Part shown: piece after piece, positions 19,536-36,199 of the stretch
Layout: each line of letters starts with the position of its first letter
Numbering within the stretch: the first letter of the stretch is position 1
Assembly: GCA_948739805.1 (NCBI GenBank)
Contig: CAPYID010000001.1
Location: 65,856-129,855, forward strand
Direction of reading: 5' to 3'
DNA length: 64,000 nt
Source: an uncultured Clostridia bacterium
GTDB taxonomy: Bacteria; Bacillota; Clostridia; TANB77; CAG-508
Made by a program: the position numbers and the translations under genes
The notes under the pieces: model-generated
Told to the model about the DNA's origin: nothing
The model's input: the letters and a program-made list of their open reading frames with translations, nothing else
Database searches by the model: none

Positions 19536-20258
19536 ATGAAAAGAATCTTATTTATTTCTTTTGTTATAATGCTAGTAAGTATTTTGCTTATTAGCATTAT
19601 CTTTATTTATAAAGATAAAAAAGAAGATTATGAACAAGAGAAAATATTTGAAGAAATAACAGACATTGTAAATCAAAGTGAAGAAAGAGAAGAAAATACA
19701 ATAAATATAGAAGAACTATATAAAATCAATAATGATATAGTAGGTTGGATTCAAATAGATAATACCAATATCAATTACCCAGTAATGCAAACAAAAGATA
19801 GCCCCAATTATTATTTAAAAAGAAACTTTTATAAAAAATATTCAAGTTTAGGAACACCATATATGGCAGAAAATTGTAATATAGAAACTAGCGATAACTT
19901 AATTATATATGGTCATCACATAAAAGGAAAAAGAGTATTTGGAGAACTAGAAAACTATAAATCAAAAGAATATTACAATAGTCATAAAAATATAAGATTT
20001 TATACCATGCAAGAAAAAGCAGAATACGAAATAATTGCAGTATTTAAAACTATTGCATACACAGGTTTTAGATATTATGAATTTTATAATGCAAAAGATG
20101 AAAGAGAGTTCGATACATTTATAAGTAATTGTAAAGAACTCTCTTTTTATGATACAGAGAAAATAGCAATATATGGCGATAAATTAATTACATTATCAAC
20201 TTGTGAATATTCAAACAAAGATGGAAGATTAGTAGTTGTAGCAAGAAAAATTATATAG
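19536..20258 (+). CDS. class B sortase
   Basis: N-terminal TM anchor, catalytic His (IIYGHH), Cys (LITLSTCEY) and Arg (GRLVVVARKI), in canonical SrtB order. Confidence 0.7.
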   Translation: MKRILFISFVIMLVSILLISIIFIYKDKKEDYEQEKIFEEITDIVNQSEEREENTINIEELYKINNDIVGWIQIDNTNINYPVMQTKDSPNYYLKRNFYKKYSSLGTPYMAENCNIETSDNLIIYGHHIKGKRVFGELENYKSKEYYNSHKNIRFYTMQEKAEYEIIAVFKTIAYTGFRYYEFYNAKDEREFDTFISNCKELSFYDTEKIAIYGDKLITLSTCEYSNKDGRLVVVARKII

Positions 20259-20269
20259 GGGGTGGAAAT

Positions 20270-21364
20270 TTGCAAGATATAAAAATAAGAGAAAAGCAAG
20301 AGAGTAAAACACCAATAAAAATAGTAGATAGAAAATCAATATATAAGGAAAAATTAAAAGAAAACTTTTATAATACAAAGCAAAAATTAAACTACAACAC
20401 AAAAGAAGATGCAGAAAATAGTCCTAACGAATATGGAATAGACAAGATAGAAGAAAAAACAAAAATAGCTTTTAATAAAGGTATAAATAATTTTAATAGA
20501 TATGGCAAAAAATCAGTAAAAACAACAAAACAAAATATACAAAAAGCTAATCAAAAGATAAAACAAAAGATAGAAAAGAACACAATAAAAACTGCAAATC
20601 TAACTGTAAAGAATACAATAAAAAGTACCAATAAAACAATAAAAACGGCAAGACAGACTGGAAAAGTAGCATATAAAACAACAAAACAAACTGCAAAAGC
20701 TACAGTAAAAACTACAAAGAAAGCATATCAAATAACAAAGACAACAACAAAAGCAACTATAAAAGGAATAAAAGTAGGAGTAAAAACAACTACTAAAGCA
20801 ATAAAAGCAACAGTTACGGCAACAAAAGCTCTAGTTTCAGCAATTTTAGCAGGTGGATCAATAGCAGTTGTTATACTTTTAATAATTTGTATAATTGGAA
20901 TGGCTTGTGCAATGTTTATTGGAGATGATACTGGTGCAGGTAATAGAATTGTTACAATTGCTTTAAAAGAAGTTGGAAATGTTGGAGGGGAAAAATATTG
21001 GTCTTGGTATGGCTTTAGCTTTCACGTAGAATGGTGTGCTTGTTTTGTATCGTGGTGTGCAAACGAATGTGGTTATATAGAAAGTGGGACTATACCTAAA
21101 TTTGCCAGTTGCAAAAATGAAGGAGTGCCATATTTTAAAGAAAATGGCTTATGGCAAGAGAGAGGATATGTTGCAAAACCTGGAGATATTATATTTTTTG
21201 ACTGGGAACAAGACGGACTTGCAGACCACGTAGGTATTGTGCAAAAAACAGAGAATGATACAGTTTATACAATAGAGGGTAATTCTAGTGGAGATACTTG
21301 CAGACAGAAAGAATATAATATTAATAGTAATGTCATTTATGGTTATGGAACACCAATGTATTAA
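20270..21364 (+). CDS. CHAP-domain peptidoglycan hydrolase of conjugation apparatus (Tn916 Orf14/PrgK/TcpG analogue)
   Basis: TTG start after GGGGGTGG. K/T-rich repetitive region, then a TM helix, then a C-terminal CHAP domain (Cys in WCACFVSWC, His in ADHVGIV). Confidence 0.8.
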   Translation: MQDIKIREKQESKTPIKIVDRKSIYKEKLKENFYNTKQKLNYNTKEDAENSPNEYGIDKIEEKTKIAFNKGINNFNRYGKKSVKTTKQNIQKANQKIKQKIEKNTIKTANLTVKNTIKSTNKTIKTARQTGKVAYKTTKQTAKATVKTTKKAYQITKTTTKATIKGIKVGVKTTTKAIKATVTATKALVSAILAGGSIAVVILLIICIIGMACAMFIGDDTGAGNRIVTIALKEVGNVGGEKYWSWYGFSFHVEWCACFVSWCANECGYIESGTIPKFASCKNEGVPYFKENGLWQERGYVAKPGDIIFFDWEQDGLADHVGIVQKTENDTVYTIEGNSSGDTCRQKEYNINSNVIYGYGTPMY

Positions 21365-21394
21365 AAACTGAAGGAAATATAATTAAAAAAATAA

Positions 21395-21432
21395 AAGGTA
21401 TGTGGAAAAATAGTCCTACATACCTTTTATTT
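21395..21432 (+). terminator. rho-independent terminator after transfer operon
   Basis: aggtatgtgg-aaaaata-gtcctacatacct stem-loop followed by TTTTATTTTTTTT. Confidence 0.5.
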
Positions 21433-21477
21433 TTTTTGAAACTATGCTATAATGACGGAAAAATAGGAAGTGATTTT

Positions 21478-21741
21478 ATGCAGAAGGACTTAAAACAATT
21501 TATTATAGAATTGATAAGTAAAAAGGAAGAAGAAAATGAAGAATTTGTAAAATATACTTTTTATGAACTAAGAGTAAAGTACAATTTAAATGAACAAGAA
21601 GTTAATCAAGTTCTAACAATAAGTAAAGATTATTTTCAAAATAAAGGTTATAAAGTGTATTTTACAGGAGAAACATTTGAATATCAAAATGCTAATAGAA
21701 TGGTACAAGATAATGAATTGATGATTGCAATAAGGAAATAG
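21478..21741 (+). CDS. hypothetical protein (87 aa)
   Basis: ATG after AGGAAGTG. An upstream TGcTATAAT -10 shares its core with the 569/3418 repeats. Confidence 0.4.
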   Translation: MQKDLKQFIIELISKKEEENEEFVKYTFYELRVKYNLNEQEVNQVLTISKDYFQNKGYKVYFTGETFEYQNANRMVQDNELMIAIRK

Positions 21742-21776
21742 AGAAAATATAAGTTTATAGAGTGGGAGAATTAGTG

Positions 21777-22304
21777 ATGGAAGAATTAATTGATGTACTA
21801 GATGAAAATGGAAATAAAACAGGAGAAATAGTAACAAGAACTCAAATACACAAAGAGGGGTTATGGCATAAAATAGTAGTAATTGCTATTATTGACAAAG
21901 ATGGACGTTTATTAATGCAACAAAGAGCAAAAGACAAAGCCAAGAATCCTCTAAAATGGGATGTTTCTTCAGCAGGACACGTATCAAGTAGTCAAACATC
22001 TATTGAATCAGCTATAAGAGAAACGCAAGAAGAACTTGGCATAGAAGTAAATGAAAAAGAATTACAATATATACTTACATACAAAGATAATGTTAAAATA
22101 GACGAAAATTATATTGATAATCAGATTTACGACTGTTATATTGTAAAAAAAGAAAAAATAGATATAAAGAATATAAAAATACAAGAAAGTGAATTAGAGC
22201 AAGTAAAATTATGTGATTTACAACAATTTAAAAATATTATTGAAAATGAAGATGTAATGAACAGAGAAGAATTATACAAAGAAATTATAAAATACTTAAA
22301 ATAG
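21777..22304 (+). CDS. NUDIX hydrolase
   Basis: Nudix box GHVSSSQTSIESAIRETQEELGIEV (Gx5Ex7REUxEExGU). Confidence 0.8.
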   Translation: MEELIDVLDENGNKTGEIVTRTQIHKEGLWHKIVVIAIIDKDGRLLMQQRAKDKAKNPLKWDVSSAGHVSSSQTSIESAIRETQEELGIEVNEKELQYILTYKDNVKIDENYIDNQIYDCYIVKKEKIDIKNIKIQESELEQVKLCDLQQFKNIIENEDVMNREELYKEIIKYLK

Positions 22305-22328
22305 AGTGAGAACGAAAGGAAAGCAAAT

Positions 22329-23021
22329 ATGCGAATAGGAATTGATATAGATGATACAATGGCAGACACTTTTGATTATCTAATGCCATATATAGCAGAA
22401 TTTTTTAAAATAGATATAAATTATTTGAAAGATAATAACATTTCATATAGTAATCTTCCAAAAGAAATGAAAGAAAAAGAATTTGAGTTTGCAAAAAAAT
22501 ATTATGATAATGTTATTCCAAAAACACCATTTAAACCTAAAGTTGGAGAATATATTGATAAAATTAAAAATTTAGGAAATGAAATTATAATTATTACAGC
22601 TAGAGATAAGAGATTATATACAGATGAATATAAAACTACTATTGAAGAATTAAAAGATAATAATATTAATTATGATAAAATAATTTGTGATTTCGATAAA
22701 GCGAAAGTTTGTAAGAATGAAAAAATAGATTTATTTATTGATGACTCTATTGAAAATTGTAGTAAGGTTGATAAATTAGGAATTACAACATTATTATTTA
22801 ACAGCAAAAACAATATAAGAGTTGAAACAAAATTAACTAGAGTTAATAGTTGGAAAGAAATATATGAGAAAATGATTAAGAAACAGATGATTGATTATAG
22901 AGAGATAAAAGAGGAAGAAAAACAACAAGTAAAAGAATTACAAGAGAAGTATTATGATTATTTTGCACAATATTTGAAAGATAAAATAGATGAAGAAAGA
23001 AAAAGTAAAGGGGAATATTAA
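22329..23021 (+). CDS. HAD-superfamily 5'(3')-deoxyribonucleotidase-like (NT5C family) with K/E-rich C-terminal extension
   Basis: N-terminal DxDxT motif IGIDIDDTMADTF as in NT5C nucleotidases. Downstream HAD motifs (ITAR, DD). Confidence 0.55.
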   Translation: MRIGIDIDDTMADTFDYLMPYIAEFFKIDINYLKDNNISYSNLPKEMKEKEFEFAKKYYDNVIPKTPFKPKVGEYIDKIKNLGNEIIIITARDKRLYTDEYKTTIEELKDNNINYDKIICDFDKAKVCKNEKIDLFIDDSIENCSKVDKLGITTLLFNSKNNIRVETKLTRVNSWKEIYEKMIKKQMIDYREIKEEEKQQVKELQEKYYDYFAQYLKDKIDEERKSKGEY

Positions 23022-23023
23022 CT

Positions 23024-23881
23024 ATGAATATATTGAATAATTGGTTGTTATATGTACTATTATATTTAGTTTTAGCAACGGCATTTACACAATTTTATAA
23101 AATTGCAACAAAAACATTAAAGAGAACAGGAGCATTGACAGTATTACTACAAATGTTGGCAGGATTAACTGCATTAATTTTATGTCCATTTTTTGAATTT
23201 AAGTTTCCAACAGAGATAAGTTTCTATATTATGTTAGGAATAGCAATAATATTTTACGCTATATCAGATAGAATTAATACAACCGTAAGGAGTGGAATAG
23301 AAGCATCAACATTTAGTATGCTAAAACAATTATCAACAACATTTATGATATTTGCAGGATTAATATTTTTTAAAGAAGAATTTATACTAACAAAATTTAT
23401 AGGTGCAATGCTTATTATATTTAGCAATGTATTAATATTTTATAAAAAAGGAAAATTTGAATTTAATAAATATATTTTGTTAGGTATATTAGCTAATATA
23501 ACCTATACGATTGCTTTGTTTTTAGATGTAAATATATCAGATAACTTTAATCTACCATTCTATGTGGCATTAACATTAATTATACCAGCACTATTAATAA
23601 TGATTTTTGAAAGAATAAAACCATCAGAAATAAAAGATGAATTAGTAGGTGGAAATAAAAAAGCAATTTTTATAACTGCTATATCTTGGGGAGTAATGAT
23701 AATATCACAATTAAGAGCATATCAATTAGGAAATGTAACTGTAATTGCACCATTATGTGCATTAACAGTAATATTAAATGTAATTGTTGGTTATTTGTTT
23801 TTAAATGAAAAAGATAACTTGTTGAAAAAAATAATATCTGCAATTTTGATAATTATAAGTATTATTTTAATAAAAATATAA
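23024..23881 (+). CDS. EamA/DMT-family transporter
   Basis: 285 aa, ~10 predicted TM helices in two repeated halves. Confidence 0.5.
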   Translation: MNILNNWLLYVLLYLVLATAFTQFYKIATKTLKRTGALTVLLQMLAGLTALILCPFFEFKFPTEISFYIMLGIAIIFYAISDRINTTVRSGIEASTFSMLKQLSTTFMIFAGLIFFKEEFILTKFIGAMLIIFSNVLIFYKKGKFEFNKYILLGILANITYTIALFLDVNISDNFNLPFYVALTLIIPALLIMIFERIKPSEIKDELVGGNKKAIFITAISWGVMIISQLRAYQLGNVTVIAPLCALTVILNVIVGYLFLNEKDNLLKKIISAILIIISIILIKI

Positions 23882-23902
23882 GTTTTGGAGGAAATTTTTA
23901 AA

Positions 23903-24313
23903 ATGAAAATACTAATAATATGTAGTAAGGCTTTTTATAAAGATATAGAACCAATAAAAGAAAGATTAGAGGAGATGGGGCAAATAGTAGAATTACCCAA
24001 TTCGTATTATGAGCCAGACGCTGAAAAGAAAAGTTGGGAATTAGGAGAAAAAGAACACGCAGAATTTAAGGCAAGAATGTTTAAAATGAGTGAAGAAAGA
24101 ATATCTAATATGGACGCAGTATTAACATTGAATTTTGATAAAAATGGAAAGAAGAATTATATAGGTGGAGCAACTTTTATTGAAATATATGAGGCGTTTA
24201 TGAAAAACAAGAAAATATTTTTATATAATGATATTCCAGACGGAATGCTATATGACGAAATAGCAGGTTTTTCTCCAATAGTAATAAACGGAAAATTGGA
24301 TTTAGTAATCTAG
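23903..24313 (+). CDS. nucleoside 2-deoxyribosyltransferase / DNPH1(Rcl)-like protein (putative)
   Basis: GGAGG RBS then ATG 23903. ILIICSKAF... and ...NYIGGATFIEIYEAFMKNKKIFLY resemble the NDT/DNPH1 fold motifs (YFCGSIRGG / SLGVGYELG). Confidence 0.35.
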   Translation: MKILIICSKAFYKDIEPIKERLEEMGQIVELPNSYYEPDAEKKSWELGEKEHAEFKARMFKMSEERISNMDAVLTLNFDKNGKKNYIGGATFIEIYEAFMKNKKIFLYNDIPDGMLYDEIAGFSPIVINGKLDLVI

Positions 24314-24415
24314 TGATAATGATTTGAAAAATAGAAAAAGATTATATACAGAAGAATCACAAAAATATTTTTGTACCAGATGATTTAGATATAATAGAAT
24401 TATAGAGGGAATGAA

Positions 24416-25027
24416 ATGAAGTTTAAAGAATATAGGCAAATGGCAGATTTGTTATATAATGAATGGGATTTAGGAAAGAAACAATCTCAGGCTAAAGGAA
24501 AGACTTGTGCTTGGATTTATCTATTTCAAATATTGGAAGAAACAGAAGAATTACTTGTTGAAAAAGAACAAGAAAAAGTAATTGGTATATGTGGTTATGC
24601 TAAATGGAATTCGAACAATCATTTATTAAGAAAAAAATTTTATACAGTTTTAAAAAATGTATTAATACATAGTCCGTTAATAAAAAATAAAAATGCAATA
24701 TATAAATATAATGAAGATTATGACTATACTCCAGAAGAATTAAAAAACTACTTTGATGGAGAAATATCAATTTTAATAGTTGATAAAGATTATAGAGGTA
24801 AAGGCATTGGAAGAAAGTTAATACTTGAATGCTTTGAATTAGCCCAAAATGATAATATGAATAATTTGCAAATTCTAACAGATGAATCTTGTGATTTTAA
24901 ATTTTATGAAATGGTTGGTTGCAAAAAAGTTTATCAAAAAGTAATTCAATATGGAGAGCCAGATAAATGCAAAAATATTTGTTCAGAAGAGGGATATATA
25001 TATGAGAAGAAATTAGTTGAAAAATAG
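24416..25027 (+). CDS. GNAT-family acetyltransferase
   Basis: ILIVDKDYRGKGIGRKLI acetyl-CoA motif A. Confidence 0.65.
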   Translation: MKFKEYRQMADLLYNEWDLGKKQSQAKGKTCAWIYLFQILEETEELLVEKEQEKVIGICGYAKWNSNNHLLRKKFYTVLKNVLIHSPLIKNKNAIYKYNEDYDYTPEELKNYFDGEISILIVDKDYRGKGIGRKLILECFELAQNDNMNNLQILTDESCDFKFYEMVGCKKVYQKVIQYGEPDKCKNICSEEGYIYEKKLVEK

Positions 25028-25053
25028 AATGTTTAATATATGGAGGAAAAAGT

Positions 25054-25605
25054 ATGAAAAATTATTTTATAATACATGGAAGTTTTGGAAGTCCATTTGG
25101 AAATTGGTTTAGTTGGTTACAAGATTTTATATCATCAGATGGAAAACAAGTATATGTACCACAATTTCCAATAGGAGTGGGTTATCAAAATTATGAAAAT
25201 TGGAGTAAATTGCTAAAATACTATTTAGATATAGGATTAATCAATGAAAATACAACAATAATAGCACATAGTATAGCACCAGCATTTGTTAGCAAATTCT
25301 TAGTAGAAAATAAATTAAAAGTGAAAAAATTAATATATGTGTGTGGATTTAATAACTATTTAGGAATAAATGAAGAATATGACACTGTAAATAAAACAAT
25401 GTATTTTAATAATTTAGAAGATGTAAAACAATATGCTAATGAAATTATTTGTTTTTATTCAGATAATGATCCATATGTAAAATATGAAGTGGAAAAAGAT
25501 TTTGCAGATAAAATTGCAACAGAGCAAATTTTAATACCAAATGCAGGACACATAAATAGTGAAAGTGGATATGACACATTTGAAGATATAGTAAGTTATA
25601 TTTAG
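25054..25605 (+). CDS. alpha/beta serine hydrolase (YdeN/RBBP9-like)
   Basis: IIHGSFGSP...W, nucleophile elbow AHSIA, and NAGHIN near the C-terminus. Confidence 0.55.
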   Translation: MKNYFIIHGSFGSPFGNWFSWLQDFISSDGKQVYVPQFPIGVGYQNYENWSKLLKYYLDIGLINENTTIIAHSIAPAFVSKFLVENKLKVKKLIYVCGFNNYLGINEEYDTVNKTMYFNNLEDVKQYANEIICFYSDNDPYVKYEVEKDFADKIATEQILIPNAGHINSESGYDTFEDIVSYI

Positions 25606-25660
25606 AGGTAAAGAAATGAAGAATAGAAAATTTTATATGTAGTAAAGGAAAAAAATATAT

Positions 25661-26299
25661 ATGGATAATGATTATATAGAAATGTGGGATAACTGGTCTT
25701 TAAAAAGAGAAGGAAAACCAGTTTATGATTTGTGGTTAGATGAATATAAGAGTGTTTTAGAAAAAAATAAAGATAACGAAATATTGGATTTAGGCTCAGG
25801 AATTGGTGCTAACACTCTCTATTTAATTGAAAGGGGTTATAAAGTTTTATCTTGTGATTTCTCAAATAATGCTTTAAAAAATATAGAAAAATATATATCT
25901 AATACTAAGACAAAATGTTTTAATATGATGAACAATTTTCCACTAGAAGATAATTCATATAACCTAATTATTGCAGATTTATCTCTTCATTACTTTAATA
26001 ATGAAACCACAATACATATAATGAAAGAAATAAAAAGGATATTGAACAAAGATGGAATTTTACTTGCAAGAGTTGCTTCTATAAATGATGTAAACTTTGG
26101 TGCTATTGGTGGAAAAGAATTAGAAAAAAATTATTACTTTGTTGAAGGTTATAATAAAAGATTTTTTGATATAAATGACATTAATAAATATTTTGGAATA
26201 ATTGGAAAATTAGAAGCAAAAGAAACATCAATGACAAGAAAAGAAGAGGCATATTCAAAACCTAAAATTTTGTATCAAGTAATAGTAAGAAATATATAG
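25661..26299 (+). CDS. class I SAM-dependent methyltransferase
   Basis: Motif I ILDLGSGIGANTLYL, acidic loop VLSCDFS, motif post-I/II. Confidence 0.75.
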   Translation: MDNDYIEMWDNWSLKREGKPVYDLWLDEYKSVLEKNKDNEILDLGSGIGANTLYLIERGYKVLSCDFSNNALKNIEKYISNTKTKCFNMMNNFPLEDNSYNLIIADLSLHYFNNETTIHIMKEIKRILNKDGILLARVASINDVNFGAIGGKELEKNYYFVEGYNKRFFDINDINKYFGIIGKLEAKETSMTRKEEAYSKPKILYQVIVRNI

Positions 26300-26357
26300 T
26301 TCTTTCAAGAATTGTAACAAAAGTCCACAGAGTAATATGTACAATAGTACTGGAGGT

Positions 26358-26994
26358 ATAATGAAAATGATAGATGAATATTATAAGAATTTTAAAGTAA
26401 GAGATTATATGAATGAAGAATCTTTAAAAAGTTGTTTATCTACAAATATAATTGATTGTTCATTAGGAACAAATCCTTTTATAGAAGAAAGTATGATAAA
26501 GCAATATATTTTAGAAGCTAGTTCGGAAATTAATAAATATCCTTCTTTAGAATATGAATTATTGAAAGAAGAATTACTTAAGTTTTGGAAAGAATATTTT
26601 TATAACAATATAAATAAGAATAATATAGCTTTTGGTGCAGGAACAATGGGAATACTAAGAAATATTTGCCAATTTTTGATTCAAGAAGGAACAAAAGTAT
26701 TAGGAATAGCGCCACAATTTCCAAGATTTATATCAGAGATAGAATTGAAAAAAGGAATATATGAATATTATAGCCTAGAAGAGAAGAATAACTATAAATT
26801 CATAGCTACAGATTTTATTGAGAAAATTGACAGTACTTATAGTTTAATATCAATAGAAAATCCTAATAATCCTACTGGACAAATAATCGATGTTAACGAT
26901 ATTGAAAAAGCCGTTAGAAAAGCAAAACAATATAATATTATGGTTATAGTAGATGAAGCATATGGCGATTATATGTCATCTACATCTTCTTATG
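26358..26994 (+). pseudogene. hisC-like class I/II aminotransferase, 5' portion (gene interrupted by mobile element at 26995)
   Basis: IDCSLGTNPF, ENPNNPTG and IVDEAYGDY motifs. Reading frame then runs into element sequence and stops (..FSKFRL*). Confidence 0.65.
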
Positions 26995-27068
26995 ACAAAA
27001 ATAAGAAAATATTGATATTTAGTAAGTTTCGCCTATAGTTTATAAATAAAAATTGGAGGTAAAAGATT

Positions 27069-27461
27069 ATGAAAAATGAAGAATTAAAGAAAGAATTTAC
27101 AGATGAAAAGACTGGAATAAGTTATACTTTAGTTGGTGACTATTATTTGCCCAACTTATATTTAGAAACAGAAGAAAAAATCACACTTAACAAATACGGA
27201 TTATTAAGGCTAGATTATTTGAAAAAGCACAAAGAAGCTGATTATATAATAATGTTTATGAATAAAGAACTCAATAAGCATTTAAAAGAAGTACAAGAAA
27301 GAACACAAGCAAGAGTAAATGAATTAGTAGAACAATTAAAGGCTAAAAGTAATTTAACAGAAGATATGAAAAATACTGATATGCTTTATTGGATTGGTAC
27401 AATGAACGCAATCAAAAATCAAGCTGAAGAAATTGTTTTAAAAGAACTGATTTATGTATGA
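27069..27461 (+). CDS. TnpV-family transposon protein
   Basis: 130 aa. SYTLVGDYYLPNL..., YGLLRLDYLKKH, and WIGTMNAIKNQAEEIVLKELIY match the TnpV family pattern. Confidence 0.6.
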   Translation: MKNEELKKEFTDEKTGISYTLVGDYYLPNLYLETEEKITLNKYGLLRLDYLKKHKEADYIIMFMNKELNKHLKEVQERTQARVNELVEQLKAKSNLTEDMKNTDMLYWIGTMNAIKNQAEEIVLKELIYV

Positions 27462-27833
27462 TAACGTTACGCTATTTTCAAATATAAATGCCTTAAAAAG
27501 CATTTTAAGACTTAATTGAATAAGAACATATTAACTACTTGTAGTTTTATAACTATGAGTAGTTTTTTATGTTCAAAAGAGAAATGAAACACCTCTTAAA
27601 AAATGTTTGATGTAATGAGAATATAGATTTGCCATAGAGCGTGGAAGTTTGAAACCGAGCAAGGTTTCATAGAGTAAGGAAAATTTATTTTTTCTTACTC
27701 TTTTTCAATAAATGCAGATATGCAGTTTATTGAAAGCCTAACAAATAGACTTGTCATTTGTTAGGAAAAATCAAAAATGCTAATAGCAATTTTGATTTTG
27801 GGTTGTAGGGTTTCCCTGCCACACAGATAAACT

Positions 27834-27863
27834 TTGTTTGTCTAGTGTGTTAGACAAGTAAAC
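27834..27863 (+). promoter_or_regulatory. oriT of MobV relaxase (pMV158-type, hairpin with TAGTGTG/TTA nick motif)
   Basis: ttgtctaGTGTGttagacaa hairpin ~35 nt upstream of the mob start, with GTGTG/TTA in the loop. Further IRs upstream (cctaacaaat...atttgttagg). Confidence 0.5.
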
Positions 27864-27895
27864 TTATTTTGAGCAAGAAAGGAGCGTTGGAGAAT

Positions 27896-29110
27896 ATGAG
27901 TTACGCTATCGTAAGAAATAAAAAATTAACACGAGCAGAAATAAATGGAAAAGGCACTCATAATGATAGAAAAGCAAAAAATCATTCTAATAAAGATATT
28001 GATCCTACTAGAACACATTTGAATTATTATATTAAGAAAAATGAGTTCACATATACAAAAGAATTTGATAAATATATAAAAGAAAATAATTTACAAGGTC
28101 ATCTTCGTAGTAATAGCATAATAATGTGTCAAATGATATTTACTTCTGATCAATCATTCTTTGATAAAATTGGAGAAAAAGAAACTAAACGATATTTTGA
28201 TGAATGTTATAAATTCATTTGTAATTATAAAAATTTAGGAGAAAAGAATATAATATCAGCAGTAGTACATCTTGATGAAGGAGCACCACACATGCACTTG
28301 ATGTTTGTTCCTGTTGTGCATACCAAAGATAAAGACGGCAATAAAATTGATAAGATTTGTGCAAGAGATTTTTGGAAAGGTAGAGATAGTTACAGAAAGC
28401 TACAAGATGCCTATTTCAATCATGTTAAGTCAAAAGGCTTTGATTTAGAAAGAGGTATGTTTATCGAAGATACTGGAAGAAAACATTATACTATTGAAGA
28501 ATATAAGAAAATTACAAATTATGAAAATACTAAAAAAGTATTGAATGATATAAAATTGGATTTGCCAAATGTTCCAAATATAAGTGATATTGGTAAATTC
28601 ACATTAAAAAGAGATGAAAAAATATTAGATGAAATTATAAAACCTAAAGATGATTTGATTAAGGAGTTATATAGAAATAACTTATCATTGCATAAAGAAT
28701 TAACAAAACAATCTAAAATTATTGATGAAGTTCAAAAATACCAAAAAGAAAGAAATTCAATAATTGCCGATAATCAAGAACTTCATAATACAGTTAAAAA
28801 TTTAGAATATGAATATAAGGAAAAGAAGAAAACTCTTGAACACGAATTTGAAGATAAATCATTTAATTTAGAATGGCAATATAAGAATAAAATTCATAAT
28901 TTAGAAAAAGAAAATAGCCACTTGAAAAAGGTTATTGATAAATTTAAGGAAACTATCTCAAAATTCATAAAATGGATATGTAAAAATTTTGATTTACTTT
29001 CTGAAGATGAGATTATTAGAGATTTTGAAAAAGAAACTCATACTTTTATTGATGCAGAAAAACAAGTCAAAAAAGAAGATAAAGAAAAAGAATGGGATTT
29101 AGAGCGATAA
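27896..29110 (+). CDS. MobV-family (Mob/Pre) relaxase
   Basis: Starts MSYAIVR. Motif III VVHLDEGAPHMHLMFVPV (HxDExTPHxH). Coiled-coil C-terminal half. AAAGGAG RBS. Confidence 0.85.
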   Translation: MSYAIVRNKKLTRAEINGKGTHNDRKAKNHSNKDIDPTRTHLNYYIKKNEFTYTKEFDKYIKENNLQGHLRSNSIIMCQMIFTSDQSFFDKIGEKETKRYFDECYKFICNYKNLGEKNIISAVVHLDEGAPHMHLMFVPVVHTKDKDGNKIDKICARDFWKGRDSYRKLQDAYFNHVKSKGFDLERGMFIEDTGRKHYTIEEYKKITNYENTKKVLNDIKLDLPNVPNISDIGKFTLKRDEKILDEIIKPKDDLIKELYRNNLSLHKELTKQSKIIDEVQKYQKERNSIIADNQELHNTVKNLEYEYKEKKKTLEHEFEDKSFNLEWQYKNKIHNLEKENSHLKKVIDKFKETISKFIKWICKNFDLLSEDEIIRDFEKETHTFIDAEKQVKKEDKEKEWDLER

Positions 29111-29115
29111 AAATA

Positions 29116-29137
29116 GACAGGGAATGCTTCCCTGCCT
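29116..29137. terminator. bidirectional stem-loop between convergent mob and ART genes
   Basis: acagggaa-tgc-ttccctg perfect hairpin. Confidence 0.45.
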
Positions 29138-29158
29138 ATCACACAAAAAAATCAGTTG

Positions 29159-30106
29159 TCACTTGTGAGTGTTTTTAGAATCCCTAATGTAATCTTTCAA
29201 CAACATAATAGCTTCTTCATAGTTATCCCTTTGAGCATACATGACTTTATCTTTATACTCCTGTATAGGGCTTTCCATTACTTTTAAAAATTCTTCTAGC
29301 AAGTTTAGTGGCTGTACATTTATTTCTAAAATAGTTGTAGTAGAATGCCTGTTATTAGGTTCTCTTTGCTTTTTTACTACCTTTTCAGAAACTACTGTAT
29401 AGTCACATGGAGGCAAAAGAATTTCATTTTCTTTATCTTTTCTCCTCTGCTCTTTAGGTCGAATAGATTTTACATCTAAACATTTTGTACCTTCGGGTAC
29501 ATGGATTTCTAACAATGTCCCTCTACTGAATTGCTTTGCAACATCATAGTTTGTAGTTGTTGATACTATCCCATTTACACCGTTTCTTTCTATGGTAGAG
29601 CATCCTCGATACAAAATAGTAGGAGATTCAATTCGAGGGGCATAGTCCAGTGCATCAGAAAACACTTTTAATTTTCTAATAAATCCTACGTCTATCGGAA
29701 AATATCCAACCTCAAGATCTTCCAGTTTTCCAAGATACCTCACCATATTCATAGAAAAGGCAAAGTCATCAAAAACATTAGGAAGAATGCCACTGATATC
29801 AAAATCAAAACCATGGAATTTATCTTCATCATAAAGAGCAAAGCTCCTTTTTCTGAAAAAGTTATTTACAAAGATTCCAGAATTTTGCTTATAACCAGCC
29901 AAAAAGGAATACAGCTCTGGCTTTAATCCATTTAACCTTTTTCGATTAATTGCCGCTTGTTGTTGTTCCAATTGACAGGCTTTCTTTTCTTCCTCTGGAA
30001 GATTTCGAATCATATCTGCTCGTATTCCAGCTAATGTGGATTTCCAATCTTGTGTGGAAGTTACATTTTTTTGAGAACTCCGTAATTGTTTTCTTTTATT
30101 ACTCAT
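29159..30106 (-). CDS. ADP-ribosyltransferase (R-S-ExE type, arginine-specific toxin-like) with N-terminal extension
   Basis: C-terminal half has ILYRG (Arg), IVSTTTN (STS-like) and KENEILLPP (ExE followed by hydrophobic residues), in the order characteristic of C2/iota/VIP2-class ARTs. RBS GAAGGAGG. Confidence 0.55.
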   Translation of the reverse strand: MSNKRKQLRSSQKNVTSTQDWKSTLAGIRADMIRNLPEEEKKACQLEQQQAAINRKRLNGLKPELYSFLAGYKQNSGIFVNNFFRKRSFALYDEDKFHGFDFDISGILPNVFDDFAFSMNMVRYLGKLEDLEVGYFPIDVGFIRKLKVFSDALDYAPRIESPTILYRGCSTIERNGVNGIVSTTTNYDVAKQFSRGTLLEIHVPEGTKCLDVKSIRPKEQRRKDKENEILLPPCDYTVVSEKVVKKQREPNNRHSTTTILEINVQPLNLLEEFLKVMESPIQEYKDKVMYAQRDNYEEAIMLLKDYIRDSKNTHK

Positions 30107-30341
30107 ATTGAGTTTACCTCCTTCTTATAAGTTGTCAATGTGCATAACTAAATTTATCTTTGTGTTACTTTTACCTCCTTTTTGAAATGAAATTGTAAAT
30201 ATACATGATTAACTGGTTATTAAACCAGAGATTAAAAAGGAAAATATGTACAAACAGTATAATAACTGTATAGGTTTATATTATATCAGATTAACGTTAA
30301 AAAGTCAAATTATGTAAATTTAAAAATGTCTATAGAAGTGT

Positions 30342-31325
30342 CTATCTTAACATTTTCCATATTCCATTTTTAGTAGATCCAACTCTTTCAATAATACCTT
30401 TTTCTTTCAGTGCTTTTATATTATATGATATTCCATCTCTTGTCAAATCAAGAATTTTAGCCATTTCAACTTGTGTAATACTTGGATTTTTTTTCATTAA
30501 ATCAATTATTTTTTCTTGTGTAGTCTTTTGTGTAGTTTCTTGTGTAGTTTCTTGTTGTTCTAAAATCATTCCATCAACTGCTTCATCAATAACTTCAAGC
30601 ATAAATTCTATAAATTCATTTGAATTACCAGCATTGTTGCAATTTTGAATTGCAGTATAATAGCCTTCTTGATGTTTTCTTATTATACTTTCTATAGGTA
30701 TATATTTAAATAACTCTTTCCAATGAGCAAGTATTGCTGTTTGCCAAAGTCTTGCTGTTCTTCCGTTTCCATCTGAAAATGGGTGTATAAATACAAATTC
30801 ATAATGGAATATAGAAGATAATATTAACGGATTAACAGTATCTTTTGCTTTATTCATCCAATTAAATAAGTTATCCATAAGTGTAGGCACCATTGTATGA
30901 GGTGGAGCCATAAAAATTTGCACATTTCCATCATAAACAGCCTCTCCGTGATTTCTAAACTTTCCACTATCATCTTCAATAGCAAAAGTTAGTATTCCTT
31001 GTATTTTCTTTAAGTCATCTACAGAATATGGATCAACATTATCAAGTTCTTCGTAAGCTTTATAGGCATTTTTGACTTCTTGAATATCTCTTTGTTCTCC
31101 AATTACAGCTTTTCCATTGATTACTGCCTCAACTTGAAATAGTGATAGTTGATTATTTTCGATAGCCAAAGAAGAATGAATTGATTTAATTCTTGTTTTT
31201 CTTCTTAATTCTGGGTATCTATTTAGACTTTCAAAATAATTAGCCTCTCCAATCTTTTCCATTATCTTTGTTGCTAGATTTAGCATTTTATCAGTAATTG
31301 TATATGGTGGGTAGTTTTCTTCCAT
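30342..31325 (-). CDS. Fic/DOC-family protein with C-terminal winged-helix domain
   Basis: Canonical Fic motif HPFSDGNGRTARL. C-terminal ...ITQVEMAKILDLTRDGISYNIKALKEKGIIERV is an HTH. Start at MEENYPP after GGAGG. Confidence 0.85.
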   Translation of the reverse strand: MEENYPPYTITDKMLNLATKIMEKIGEANYFESLNRYPELRRKTRIKSIHSSLAIENNQLSLFQVEAVINGKAVIGEQRDIQEVKNAYKAYEELDNVDPYSVDDLKKIQGILTFAIEDDSGKFRNHGEAVYDGNVQIFMAPPHTMVPTLMDNLFNWMNKAKDTVNPLILSSIFHYEFVFIHPFSDGNGRTARLWQTAILAHWKELFKYIPIESIIRKHQEGYYTAIQNCNNAGNSNEFIEFMLEVIDEAVDGMILEQQETTQETTQKTTQEKIIDLMKKNPSITQVEMAKILDLTRDGISYNIKALKEKGIIERVGSTKNGIWKMLR

Positions 31326-31370
31326 TTCAAAACCTCCAATTTTGCCACCACTGGTGGCAATTTTCATTTA

Positions 31371-32258
31371 TTATTTATTTCTTGCCCTACTTTTATAAAC
31401 ATTTTCTTGATTTTTACAACTAAATGTATCATATTCAGTTTTTGGGTTTGGTGCTGTAAATGCTTTTCCACAATGTTTACAAAGTTTCAAATATTTCTTC
31501 TCTTCAATTGCAAATAATTTAAAATCTTCATCTATGTATTCTTTTAAACTTCTTACATGTATTGTAATTCCGTTATATTCTAAATTAGTTCTAATATGAT
31601 TTGATTCTAGCTTTTCAATTAAATAATCATCTATATGTTCGCAATCTTCTTTTTTCAATTCTTTTAATATGTTATATAAAGTCTGTGCATAATTTACTAT
31701 CATATCTGCTCGTTCATAGTATTTTTCGTTTTTATAGTATAACTCGTTTAAATCTGGAGTAATAAATTTTTCCATACTATGCTGACAAATAAGTTTATTA
31801 CTTTTTTCTATCAATTCTTTTATTTCTTCTTTACTTGCTGTTGGAAAGAATATTTTAAAATAATCTAGTATGTCCATTGTATTAAAGCAATCATAATATT
31901 CTTTGCCTGTTACATTATTAAATTCTTTTAACAATACCTTTTTATCTAATGTATAATATCTATTTACTGGCAAATTATGAATTAATCCTAAAAGCCCATA
32001 TTGATTTACAAATTCTAGTAATAAACTATCAGTTTTTTCTCCATTTTCTAATGATAGTTTTCCTAAATTTATAAAATCTATTAACGGCTTATCATTTTCT
32101 TCATAATCATCAAAACTAATCACAGTATAATTTGACATATTTATAGTATTATCAATTTTAGGTACAACATATTTAATATTGTTTATAACTTTTATTTCAT
32201 ATTCTTCAAACTTCGGTAAAGACTCATTATTAAAGCCATATTCTAAATCAAATCTCAT
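31371..32258 (-). CDS. hypothetical protein with C-terminal CxxC...C zinc-ribbon-like motif
   Basis: Co-directional and contiguous with the Fic gene (4 nt gap). C-terminus ends LCKHCGKAF...FSCKNQ. Confidence 0.4.
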   Translation of the reverse strand: MRFDLEYGFNNESLPKFEEYEIKVINNIKYVVPKIDNTINMSNYTVISFDDYEENDKPLIDFINLGKLSLENGEKTDSLLLEFVNQYGLLGLIHNLPVNRYYTLDKKVLLKEFNNVTGKEYYDCFNTMDILDYFKIFFPTASKEEIKELIEKSNKLICQHSMEKFITPDLNELYYKNEKYYERADMIVNYAQTLYNILKELKKEDCEHIDDYLIEKLESNHIRTNLEYNGITIHVRSLKEYIDEDFKLFAIEEKKYLKLCKHCGKAFTAPNPKTEYDTFSCKNQENVYKSRARNK

Positions 32259-32538
32259 ATTTTTTCTCCAATCTAAAAATTTTTTCAAAAATTTCGCAGT
32301 AATATATTGACATTAGTAAAATATTACAGTATAATTTTAAATATGTAATATATTTATCAATTATAAATATTACTTTTATTTTTAAGATAATACTTAACAT
32401 CTACAAATATATTACATTAAAATATAACAAATGTCAACACATATACAAAAATAAATAGCGTTATATGGGATTTTTATGCCTAAAATAATGCAAGTAAAAA
32501 ATATTAGTACATATTTAAAGGGAAGGAGGTTTTTGACA

Positions 32539-33009
32539 TTGAATAAGAAAGATGAAATTTTGAAATTGTATTATGAAGATCATTTGAAACAACAAGATAT
32601 TGCACAAAAAGTTAAAGTTTCTCAAGGTTATGTATCGCAAGTTATAAAAACTGATAAAAGATATAATTCAAATAAAGAAACTAAACACAAATCATCTATG
32701 ATTAGAAAGGCAACTTATAATAAAGAATATTATAAAACTTATAAGCGACCTAAAAAAGATGATAATTCATATCGAGAAATGCAAGCCCAGCTTGAAAAAG
32801 ATATTGCTGAATTATCTTATTATCATAACTATAATATGTCTGATTATGATTTTGTAAAATGTAATTCAAGTGCTTATCATAGAAATAGCAAAGGTAATTT
32901 ATCATTAGTAAATGGATTAACAGTTGGGGTTGATGTTCCTAGAACGGTAAATATGAATATCAAAGTGCCAACTCAAAAGTACAAATACAAATGCTGTATG
33001 AGTTATTAA
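32539..33009 (+). CDS. HTH-domain (sigma-70 region 4-like) regulatory protein
   Basis: HTH LKQQDIAQKVKVSQGYVSQVIK. Probable TTG start 8 nt after GGAGG. An upstream ATG at 32476 is possible. Confidence 0.45.
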   Translation: MNKKDEILKLYYEDHLKQQDIAQKVKVSQGYVSQVIKTDKRYNSNKETKHKSSMIRKATYNKEYYKTYKRPKKDDNSYREMQAQLEKDIAELSYYHNYNMSDYDFVKCNSSAYHRNSKGNLSLVNGLTVGVDVPRTVNMNIKVPTQKYKYKCCMSY

Positions 33010-33080
33010 AAATTTGTTTAAGACTTCTATTTAGAGGTCTTTTTATTTTACCCAGATTGACAAAACAGGAGGAATTAGAG

Positions 33081-33215
33081 ATGAGTGAAAAATCAAAAAA
33101 GAAAAATGAAATAGTTATAATAAATAAATTCAAAGACACTGGTGCAGAAAGTGTAACAACTACACTTATAAAAGTTTTTGAAATATTTTGTAATATGCAA
33201 ATGTCTAAAAGATAA
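33081..33215 (+). CDS. small hypothetical protein (44 aa) upstream of recombinase
   Basis: CAGGAGGAATTAGAG-ATG RBS. Confidence 0.3.
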   Translation: MSEKSKKKNEIVIINKFKDTGAESVTTTLIKVFEIFCNMQMSKR

Positions 33216-33283
33216 TAAACAAAGACAGATTTTAGTTTCCATCTATATTTTTAGCTATTGATTTTTATATTAAGTTATGTTAA

Positions 33284-34891
<1,608 letters not shown>

Positions 34892-34944
34892 AAAGATGTA
34901 AACTCATTAAACAACTCAGCTATAAAACTCGTGGGCAAATATGA

Positions 34945-35386
34945 TAATATAATGGTATTAAGAAGTGCCTCAAAATTTTACGGACTGCCTAATCATAGAG
35001 TAGGTTATATGTTTGCAGACAAAGAATTAGTAAAAATATATAATGAAATTGCAATACCATTTCCATTTTCAGATTTATCCGCTAGTGTTTTTATCAAAGT
35101 TTTAAAAGACTATGATAAATTAGAATTTACAAAACAAAAAACAATAGAAGTAAATAAAAAGATATATAACGCAATAAAGAAAGAAAATTACCTTTGTACA
35201 AATATAGAAACACCAATATTTACAATAAAAACAAATAAATATGATAATTTAACTAAGCAATTGATGAAGGAGGGAATTATCGCTGAGAACTGTAGTTATT
35301 TTATAAATTTAGATAACACATATGCACGAATAAGAATTAACAAAGATTATGAACAAATAATAAAAATACTTTCAAAAATATTATAA
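34945..35386 (+). pseudogene. hisC-like aminotransferase, 3' portion (continues 26358-26994)
   Basis: NIMVLRSASKFYGLPNHRVGY contains the PLP-lysine motif of class I/II aminotransferases. No independent start/RBS. Confidence 0.65.
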
Positions 35387-35400
35387 AGGAGTCAAAATAA

Positions 35401-35883
35401 ATGGAAAATGAGGTATATAAACTATTAGATAAATTAAACATTGAATATACAAAAATAGAACATCCACCGTTATTTACTTGCGAAGATAACGAAAAATATA
35501 ATATAAAATTTGATGCAGTAGTATGTAAAAATCTTTTTATAAGAAATAACAATAAAAGTCAATATTATGTGGTTTCTTTACCTTTAGAGAAAAGAGTAGA
35601 TTTAAAATCATTACAAATGATATTAGGAGAAAAAAGATTAAGTTTTGGAAATGAAAATGTACTAGAAGAAAAACTTGGAATAAAGAGTGGAGCAGTTTCA
35701 ATATTTAATATTATCAATTTAAAAGACAAAGATATTAGTTTTATACTAGATGAAGATATATTAAAATACGAAAAAGTAGGTTTTCATCCAAATATAAATA
35801 CAGAAACAGTAATATTTAATCCAAAAGAATTGCACAGAATATTTGAGTGTTATGATGTAAAATATAAATTTATTAAAATGTAG
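35401..35883 (+). CDS. YbaK/ProX-like aminoacyl-tRNA deacylase domain protein
   Basis: KNLFIRNNNKSQYYVVSLP...LGIKSGAVSIFNIIN matches the YbaK/ProRS-associated editing domain. Confidence 0.7.
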   Translation: MENEVYKLLDKLNIEYTKIEHPPLFTCEDNEKYNIKFDAVVCKNLFIRNNNKSQYYVVSLPLEKRVDLKSLQMILGEKRLSFGNENVLEEKLGIKSGAVSIFNIINLKDKDISFILDEDILKYEKVGFHPNINTETVIFNPKELHRIFECYDVKYKFIKM

Positions 35884-36199
35884 CGCATGTAACTTTATGA
35901 CATTTTTACCGAAAAAAATAAAATTTTTAAGTCTATTCGACAAGAAACAACAAATTTTTCACTTTAAAAGTGCTATAATATTTACAAGAATTTCCAATAA
36001 TGTGCCTAAAATACAAAAGAAAAGAGGTAATATAGAAAAGAGAAAAAATAAAATTATTATGTACTAGCAGTCAAAATAGTCAATGTAATAACAAGCAATG
36101 ATTATTTTGGCTATTTTTTTATACTTTTGAAGATTTACATAAAATCGAAAGAAAAATCACATTTGGATTTCCGAATCTCGAAAGAGAGGAGGTGATATT

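Follow-up and report, generated by a model that had tools for sequence, protein, structure and literature searches.

In a 64,000-nt stretch of an uncultured Clostridia genome (the window, G+C content ~26%), an integrative conjugative element (ICE) located at ~3.4-40.3 kb carries four consecutive small genes. They code for a Nudix hydrolase, an NT5C-type phosphatase with a HAD fold (ORF2), an EamA-type transporter, and a small protein (ORF4) related to nucleoside 2-deoxyribosyltransferases (NDT) and DNPH1. An earlier note had described this quartet as a nucleotide catabolism module. Comparison with sister ICEs makes another explanation probable, in our view, namely that the quartet is a recent juxtaposition among the accessory genes of a serine-recombinase ICE in decay, and that each product is a stand-alone house-cleaning or salvage protein. 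Because the genes were joined recently by deletion and cassette swapping, we do not regard the quartet as a conserved pathway or a defence system. The family assignments behind the module idea stand, at the level of superfamilies, whereas the dedicated module is not supported, since the quartet is not co-conserved and the junction between the phosphatase and transporter genes is a deletion scar. Each product is most likely constitutive, and any flux through several of the enzymes would be incidental rather than a selected pathway. The features that matter for this argument are the following.

21385-21436, + strand: terminator-like hairpin immediately 3' of the CHAP hydrolase gene, made of a perfect 19-bp inverted repeat with a T run after it (from a repeat search)
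21478-21741, + strand: orf87, a conserved small ICE gene (87 aa) that precedes the Nudix gene throughout this ICE family
21777-22304, + strand: Nudix hydrolase of the YfcD/IDI-like subgroup, 175 aa from the ATG chosen by gene callers (Pfam PF00293)
22329-23021, + strand: ORF2, NT5C-type HAD phosphatase, with the catalytic domain in aa 1-185 and a chimeric C-terminal scar in aa 186-230
22887-23010, + strand: deletion scar, in which the start of a lost GNAT gene is fused in frame to the end of a lost SET-domain remnant
23024-23881, + strand: EamA/DMT-family transporter, 285 aa (PF00892), first gene of the variable cargo slot
23903-24313, + strand: ORF4, 136 aa, predicted N-glycosidase or transferase, a divergent member of the NDT/DNPH1 superfamily

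Sister elements and the origin of the quartet

The four open reading frames (ORFs) are all on the + strand and run in the same direction, with gaps of 24, 2 and 21 nt between them. In the sister ICEs (loci L111-L120) the gene order is VirB4-sortase-CHAP-orf87-Nudix (175 aa)-NT5C (185 aa)-GNAT (164 aa), followed by a SET-domain gene or its 68-aa remnant, after which the cargo differs from element to element. L111 and L115 continue with a PnuC-type transporter, and L113 and L114 with a 2-hydroxyacid dehydrogenase, a methyltransferase and a sugar transporter. Nudix proteins that are at least 90% identical to the one in the window are found on many contigs of this ICE family, and neither EamA nor ORF4 occurs in L111-L120. 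The quartet itself was found only in copies of the window ICE that are 100% identical (L001, L105 and L107).

The boundaries became clear from a nucleotide comparison (blastn) of the window with L113, L115 and L111. Positions 21377-22882 match L113 with 95% nucleotide identity, the next segment (22887-22939) corresponds to the first 53 nt of the L113 GNAT gene, and 22927-23010 corresponds to the last 84 nt of the L113 SET remnant. The homology with L113 ends at 23010, in the ribosome-binding site (RBS) ahead of the EamA start codon. As a result, ORF2 has an extra tail of 45 residues composed of MIDYREIKEEEKQQVKEL, which is the GNAT N-terminus (first 18 residues), QEKYYDYFAQYLKDKIDEERK, which is the SET C-terminus (last 21 residues), and five more residues. 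Homology with the ICE backbone restarts at 35887 with a sigma-like gene, PemK and the recombinase, so that the variable cargo slot comprises 23011-35886 and seven genes, coding for EamA, ORF4, a GNAT protein, a PF06821 serine hydrolase, an S-adenosylmethionine (SAM) methyltransferase, a HisC-like aminotransferase and a YbaK-like protein. Based on the limits of the L113 homology and the composition of the ORF2 tail, the Nudix and NT5C genes belong to a conserved ICE segment, and the variable slot begins with EamA and ORF4. The quartet thus spans two evolutionary units, since ORF2 ends in a GNAT/SET scar. Deletions of the GNAT and SET genes joined the conserved segment to the slot and left the chimeric tail on the phosphatase.

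The junction has the same position in four ICE variants. In each, conserved sequence reaches up to an AAAGGAG RBS and diverges just 5' of the start codon of the first cargo gene (window, 23000-23024; L113, 11680-11707; L115, 10340-10364; L111, 4410-4435), and cassette exchange therefore seems to break at the RBS. The accessory region of the ICE family thus has a clear architecture, in which the Nudix-NT5C-GNAT-SET segment is conserved and leads into a cargo slot with breakpoints at ribosome-binding sites. This slot and the variable arrays in the chromosomes of these bacteria draw on one pool of small 'miscellaneous enzyme' genes, which are individually shuffled among gut Clostridia. The case is also a cautionary one, as a neat series of chemistries on a mobile element can mimic a pathway or a defence system, until sister elements reveal the deletion and the cassette swap.

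Upstream, the block is delimited by the hairpin at 21385-21436, which divides the conjugation genes from the accessory genes. A consensus terminator scan missed this hairpin because its stem is AT-rich, and in the repeat search, which covered 20000-29500, all other matches were low-complexity AT-rich sequences. The first gene after the hairpin, orf87, is annotated as 87 aa in L001, L105 and L111-L120, and has no Pfam match; a 113-aa ORF that starts at 21400 was rejected as an over-extension. The consensus scan detected no terminator inside the block, the first ones being located after the TnpV gene of a nested element, at 27533 and 27671. Given the gaps of 2-24 bp and the absence of a terminator until past TnpV, the accessory genes are probably co-transcribed as one transcript. 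A search of the block for riboswitches and other RNAs gave no match at E <= 1.

Predicted properties of the four proteins

The Nudix protein matches PF00293 with 57 bits (cut-off 21.1) and contains the Nudix box GHVSSSQTSIESAIRETQEELGI, in which RETQEE is intact (REx2EE core) and Gln replaces the Glu eight residues before the Arg. Its best NCBIfam matches are isopentenyl diphosphate (IPP) isomerase and YfcD, both below the cut-off (NF002995, NF011922: 64.7 versus 127, 51.7 versus 152), and its closest sequence match in the PDB is E. coli YfcD (2fkb, E 5e-7). It shares an N-terminal extension and the Nudix fold with YfcD and with type 1 IPP isomerase-like proteins, but it fails their equivalog cut-offs by a wide margin. 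We know of no established substrate for YfcD. The step from nucleoside triphosphate (NTP) to monophosphate (NMP) that the earlier note assigned to this enzyme is therefore one of many possibilities, since the protein scores well below the equivalog cut-offs of its nearest relatives; the Nudix family call is sound, but membership of the YfcD/IDI-like subgroup does not imply this reaction. The protein is predicted to cleave some nucleoside-diphosphate-X compound. Scans of viral contigs returned only generic Nudix-box matches with 24-44% identity.

ORF2 itself matches no Pfam family, and PF06941 (NT5C) is not reached even at E <= 10. Homologues that are 69-80% identical over aa 1-185 do match, with 37-38 bits against a cut-off of 24.8, and in a family alignment of 42 sequences D6, D8 and T10 (DxDxT), K124, and D138 and D139 (DD) are invariant, and T90 nearly so. 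The AlphaFold2 (AF2) model has a HAD fold (pLDDT 94.3), and Foldseek retrieved HAD enzymes with it, including the human and mouse mdN/cdN deoxyribonucleotidases (E 6e-7 to 5e-6). At superfamily level these data agree with the assignment as an NT5C-like HAD nucleotidase. The resemblance to cdN and mdN consists of the HAD core with DxDxT and DD motifs and fold matches to 1q92, 2jao and 2i7d, but sequence identity is just 16-18%, AphA and generic HAD phosphatases score equally well, and ORF2 differs from the NT5C family in carrying the 45-aa scar helix and in remaining below the Pfam threshold. The enzyme is predicted to dephosphorylate (deoxy)nucleoside monophosphates. Single-sequence PDB searches with ORF2 and ORF4 gave chance-level matches only.

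A chromosomal homologue with 80% identity to the NT5C protein lies in a conserved context, rlmD-like methyltransferase-GNAT-NT5C-alr, and none of the 10 NT5C loci examined contains another gene of the quartet. In the chromosomal loci (L086-L095; P0132, P0134) a 144-aa GNAT gene always precedes the NT5C gene. Relatives of the NT5C protein usually have a GNAT as neighbour or fusion partner, or else are fused with DUF6933; the GNAT fusion measures 329 aa and the DUF6933 fusion 381 aa. Serine-recombinase elements insert just upstream of the GNAT-NT5C pair, beside the rlmD-like tRNA/rRNA U5-methyltransferase gene (L089 and L090). The 381-aa neighbour of ORF4 in L003, equal in length to the NT5C-DUF6933 fusion, proved unrelated to it by BLASTP.

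The third protein is indeed a DMT transporter set among the enzymes, as the earlier note had stated, with two EamA repeats (PF00892, 51.6 bits versus a cut-off of 28.2). It is predicted to export a small metabolite unrelated to the chemistry of the enzymes. An exact look-up of its sequence found no record. Relatives with 76-87% identity are located on the chromosome within long runs of small-enzyme genes unrelated to one another, where no nucleotide enzymes adjoin them; their neighbours include aldo-keto reductase, aldehyde dehydrogenase, peptidase, GNAT, cytidine deaminase, SDR and serine hydrolase genes. ORF4 was absent from all 9 EamA loci, and there was one adjoining Nudix gene; on a 1.5-kb contig, a Nudix gene other than that of the window (48% identity) lies directly 5' of EamA.

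ORF4 starts at 23903 and not at 23885, as judged from a GGAGG motif 9-10 nt upstream and from homologues of 136 aa. The protein itself has no match in Pfam (E <= 10), NCBIfam, PHROG or PADLOC, and it belongs to a large family, with 1793 matches in a database clustered at 90% identity and 876 clusters at 50% identity. PF05014 (Nuc_deoxyrib_tr) is matched at E <= 1 by 27 of 52 diverse relatives (best 1.6e-5), and P0353, a distant fusion protein of the family, clears the PF05014 threshold (30.1 versus 28.8). The AF2 model (pLDDT 97.9) led to the same superfamily, as the top 25 PDB matches in Foldseek are all BcmB, NDT, DNPH1, MilB or YtoQ. The first of these is BcmB from C. botulinum, a cytidine monophosphate (CMP) N-glycosidase, with a TM-score of 0.54-0.57, and the best viral structure matches (BFVD) are phage NDTs. 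A literature search on YtoQ, the match with the best TM-score, yielded nothing bearing on function. In a profile-to-PDB alignment, E94 of ORF4 pairs with the nucleophile E88, and D71 with D62, of the Chroococcidiopsis NDT (CtNDT). Both residues are kept in at least 90% of the family, the conserved positions being D71, N77, Y86, G88, E94, K103 and E119.

From these data we conclude that ORF4 represents a divergent subfamily of the nucleoside 2-deoxyribosyltransferase/DNPH1 superfamily, and the proposal of a DNPH1/NDT-like protein at 23903 is thereby upheld, with the fold, the aligned catalytic Asp and Glu, and the PF05014 matches of relatives in agreement. The Rossmann-like fold is shared with NDT, DNPH1, BcmB and MilB (Foldseek E 4e-4 to 1e-2, probability 1.0), yet TM-scores are just 0.46-0.68, and ORF4 differs by a helical insertion of ~30 residues (model residues 40-68). 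Judged by eye, and unlike NDT (Y7) and DNPH1 (Y24), ORF4 lacks a matching Tyr in its N-terminal strand and has a near-invariant Ser8 instead. The N-terminal consensus, also read by eye, is MKIxICxSxxFY, and the alignment to the NDT hidden Markov model begins at profile position 21, leaving the N-terminus unaligned. Glu94 together with Asp71 is predicted to act on the N-glycosidic bond of a nucleoside or nucleotide, either by cleavage or by transfer. In gut Clostridia this subfamily of the NDT/DNPH1 fold is abundant and uncharacterised, has its catalytic residues intact, and is a modest novelty. Some distant members of the family (P0255, P0305 and P0319) have fusion partners, namely CobU (cobinamide kinase), MazG along with a second NDT domain, or an RNase T-type exonuclease; these may hint at the substrate, or the fusions may be gene-calling artefacts.

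Gene neighbourhoods and alternative explanations

The neighbourhood of ORF4 was analyzed in 80 species-level genomes with homologues of 65-90% identity (L006-L085), using a radius of 10 kb. The loci, retrieved with the ORF4 protein, stem nearly all from uncultured gut Clostridia, such as Clostridium sp. CAG:465. Within this radius, EamA was found in none of the 80 loci, and a Nudix gene of the type in the window in 12 (mostly non-adjacent); 6 loci had an NT5C-like gene (29-38% identity), and no locus had all of these genes together. The close homologues of each quartet gene (76-90% identical) reside separately in chromosomal arrays of small enzymes. Hence the expectation that the quartet would recur as a neighbourhood elsewhere was not borne out, as there are only copies of one element, no EamA gene near ORF4 in the 80 loci, and sister ICEs with different genes. 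The immediate neighbours of ORF4 vary strongly, with 77 different pairs among 83 loci, which may reflect generally poor synteny of these genomes or frequent gene relocation. In an alignment of the 80 loci, conservation extends from the ATG to the stop codon, and there are no flanking repeats; a travelling cassette with conserved ends was rejected because the flanks are unconserved.

Among 145 immediate neighbours of ORF4 there were 5 Nudix, 4 HD, 3 NT5C, 2 NTPase_I-T and 2 Ham1 genes. As a control we used 102 genes located seven positions away from ORF4, for which the 25 commonest of 99 families were listed. Nudix genes are not enriched beside ORF4 (5/145 versus 5/102), and for all nucleotide hydrolases combined the difference is 16/145 versus 5/102 (odds ratio 2.4, p = 0.11).

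Several observations weigh against a mere juxtaposition. The four predicted chemistries plausibly align into a route from nucleotide to base and sugar, and a nucleotide theme for the block is plausible. HD, NT5C-like, NTPase_I-T and Ham1 genes adjoin ORF4 in 11 of 145 cases and in none of the 102 controls among the families listed (p = 0.003), a contrast that is unreliable and maybe overstated because the controls show just 25 of the 99 families. In L060, L062 and L081, moreover, relatives of ORF4 are closely packed together with NTPase_I-T, HD and YfcD-like Nudix genes. L060 has the order NTPase_I-T-ORF4-HD-Nudix-HD-HD (8775-12373); in L060 and L062, ORF4 homologues of 81-83% identity form a tight array with HD genes and a Nudix gene 59-60% identical to that of the window; and in L081 (7499-12599), next to integrase fragments, ORF4 is followed by a DUF4406-like NDT paralogue, a pair of Nudix genes, and genes for a cupin, an HD protein and ToxN. 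These arrays are a suggestive hint that ORF4 is a nucleotide-directed house-cleaning enzyme. Finally, the first cargo gene after the junction is a transporter in three of the four ICE variants (PnuC twice, EamA once), and there could be selection for an export or import step at this position.

The main rival explanation holds that the quartet is a working pathway for nucleotide sanitation or catabolism, in which the Nudix enzyme would produce a monophosphate from a non-canonical (d)NTP/(d)NDP or a dinucleotide, NT5C would remove its phosphate or the DNPH1-like ORF4 its base, and EamA would export the resulting base, nucleoside or analogue, giving recipients of the ICE extra clearance of damaged or analogue nucleotides. 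The family and fold assignments, the conserved catalytic residues, the tight gene spacing with no internal terminator, and the stability of the Nudix-NT5C pair across the ICE family all fit this idea, as do the arrays in L060, L062 and L081 and the NT5C-like gene directly 3' of ORF4 in L017 and L057. However, the quartet is confined to one element and was made by a deletion scar, EamA never accompanies ORF4 in the 80 loci and has its relatives among unrelated enzymes, the combined neighbour enrichment is weak, and the YfcD/IDI-like Nudix subgroup has no known NTP substrate. Sets of house-cleaning nucleotide hydrolases (Nudix, HD, Ham1/ITPase, YjjX NTPase) resemble the situation of ORF4 in that it adjoins such genes in some loci, but ORF4 has no fixed operon, its neighbours change in almost every genome, and the enrichment is weak. 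Altogether we consider such a pathway unlikely, while giving it a real chance. A bolder version appears quite doubtful to us, namely that the ORF4 family is a new nucleotide or nucleoside N-glycosidase that performs a sanitation step with YfcD-like Nudix, HD and ITPase-type enzymes in gut Clostridia, and that the ICE string is a transferable form of this set. If true, the string would let recipients destroy and expel non-canonical, phage-modified or drug-analogue nucleotides.

The proteins could also turn over NAD, nicotinamide mononucleotide (NMN) and nicotinamide riboside. The Nudix enzyme would then convert NAD(H) to NMN, the HAD enzyme NMN to nicotinamide riboside, which the transporter would move, and ORF4 would act on NMN or nicotinamide riboside; such a set might stabilise the NAD level once the ICE has been transferred, or counteract immunity that depletes NAD. 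In L111 and L115 a PF04973 NMN_transporter gene takes the place of EamA at the junction, 4 of 84 ORF4 loci have NadE and NadD genes no more than ~2 kb away from ORF4, and its immediate neighbours include NAD_synthase three times and CTP_transf_like twice. Folds of NAD glycohydrolases, among them TIR and ADP-ribosyl cyclase, moreover belong to the NDT clan. We nevertheless rate NAD turnover as improbable. By inspection, which was no dedicated test, no NudC-type motif was seen after the Nudix box, and the best matches are YfcD and IDI; the ORF4 model is nearer to NDT, DNPH1, BcmB and MilB than to TIR; PnuC-family proteins also transport other nucleosides and vitamins; and the association counts are small and phylogenetically non-independent.

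The earlier note further suggested defence or counter-defence by manipulation of the nucleotide pool. Such an anti-phage cassette would deplete deoxynucleoside triphosphates, or destroy modified nucleotides or nucleotide second messengers, during infection or after conjugative entry. The location on a mobile element agrees with this, defence systems are known to employ NDT-like effectors and enzymes that deplete nucleotides (e.g., from the retron Ec86 literature), integrase fragments and the gene for the toxin ToxN border the array in L081, and there is a weak match (E 1e-9) between the Nudix protein and PDC-S07, a PADLOC candidate. That match spans the generic Nudix domain only, and a search of PADLOC-DB 2.0 found no specific system and nothing for EamA or ORF4. 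Its other matches were the methyltransferase domain with mad2 and a marginal pAgo match for ORF2 (E 0.009, with no qualifying stretch). The NDT-like effector of retron Ec86 comes with a reverse transcriptase and a noncoding RNA, but no such partner, sensor or regulator was found in the cargo block. The closest homologues are chromosomal and in housekeeping contexts, ORF4 has no relative in the viral-contig scan and no PHROG, and the block lies behind the type IV secretion system (T4SS) genes instead of in the leading region. With no specific PADLOC system, no riboswitch in the block and no viral relative of ORF4, the defence proposal finds no backing, and we judge it very improbable.

Hardly credible, finally, is a cluster for biosynthesis of, or resistance to, a nucleoside antimetabolite of the bacimethrin, mildiomycin or blasticidin kind, in which a BcmB/MilB-like N-glycosidase would work with a methyltransferase, an aminotransferase, a GNAT protein and an exporter. 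BcmB is the top Foldseek match of ORF4, with MilB also listed, and a SAM methyltransferase, a pyridoxal phosphate (PLP) aminotransferase, a GNAT protein and an exporter are all encoded in the array. Yet no cargo gene codes for a CMP hydroxymethylase (thymidylate-synthase-like) or a kinase, the array is conserved nowhere, its aminotransferase gene is disrupted, and the TM-scores to BcmB are just 0.54-0.57.

The host element and its other cargo

The setting of the quartet as ICE cargo was correctly recognized in the earlier note, with a relaxase, VirB4, sortase and CHAP hydrolase upstream and a serine recombinase downstream. The further features of the element and its surroundings are listed below.

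~3.4-40.3 kb: integrative conjugative element; left flank with SDR, metallophosphoesterase and GNAT genes, right flank with a GNAT gene (small chromosomal enzyme genes)
6346-7716: MobA/VirD2 relaxase
10349-13981: T4SS coupling-protein gene split by a group II intron, with PF02534 fragments on both sides
11413-13227: reverse transcriptase/maturase/HNH ORF of the group II intron
13241-13337: group II intron domain (Rfam)
15187-16794: insertion sequence (IS) element with an rve-family transposase, between TrbL-like genes and PrgI
17168-19531: VirB4
20270-21364: CHAP hydrolase
24416-25027, + strand: GNAT protein (Pfam), variable slot
25054-25605, + strand: PF06821 serine hydrolase (Ser_hydrolase; Pfam), variable slot
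25661-26299, + strand: SAM methyltransferase (Pfam), variable slot
26337-26975, + strand: 5' part of the HisC-like class I/II aminotransferase gene, into which a mobilisable element is inserted
26976-34905, + strand: nested mobilisable element of 7.93 kb, not part of the ICE cargo array
29159-30106, - strand: ADP-ribosyltransferase-like protein, cargo of the nested element
30342-31367, - strand: Fic/HTH protein, cargo of the nested element
31371-32288, - strand: 305-aa protein of no assigned family, cargo of the nested element
~34906-35386, + strand: 3' part of the aminotransferase gene
35401-35883, + strand: YbaK-like aminoacyl-tRNA editing-domain gene, end of the variable cargo slot
38573-40274: large serine recombinase of the ICE
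60064-60417: chromosomal RNase P RNA

The backbone also includes PrgI and sortase genes, and DUF3848 and DUF3991-Toprim proteins are among the products of the ICE. With its relaxase, VirB4, CHAP hydrolase, large serine recombinase and variable cargo slot, the element resembles other ICEs of Firmicutes in its accessory region, but it carries small 'miscellaneous enzyme' genes rather than antibiotic resistance. The closest relatives of these cargo genes are found in chromosomal arrays of the same gut Clostridia. A megablast search of 21400-27500 against plasmids gave no match.

This copy of the ICE is decaying, as it contains an IS element, a group II intron, the scar in ORF2, a nested element and a frameshifted recombinase gene. 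The IS at 15187-16794 is missing from the sister ICEs L113, L115 and L116. The recombinase is encoded by two overlapping ORFs, owing to a 1-nt insertion near 38811 relative to L113 (AATAGACC-TGG versus AATAGACCACGG), so this copy may have lost the ability to excise, unless the frameshift is an assembly error.

Downstream of ORF4, Pfam places GNAT, alpha/beta hydrolase (PF06821) and SAM methyltransferase genes after the quartet, in agreement with the earlier note, and homologues of these three are dispersed over other arrays. The next gene is interrupted by the nested element; when its two parts are rejoined, the resulting 368-aa aminotransferase matches PF00155 over positions 23-357 of 361 with 156 bits, compared to 95 bits for the 5' fragment alone. 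The nested element encodes TnpV, a Mob_Pre relaxase, a sigma-like protein and a 518-aa large serine recombinase. The combination of TnpV with Mob_Pre and large serine recombinase genes is the gene set of Tn4451-type mobilisable transposons. An identical TnpV and element ends with 92-99% identity are present at other chromosomal sites (L106, L109 and L110), where the copies carry other cargo, with DUF4379 and YhcG-like genes.

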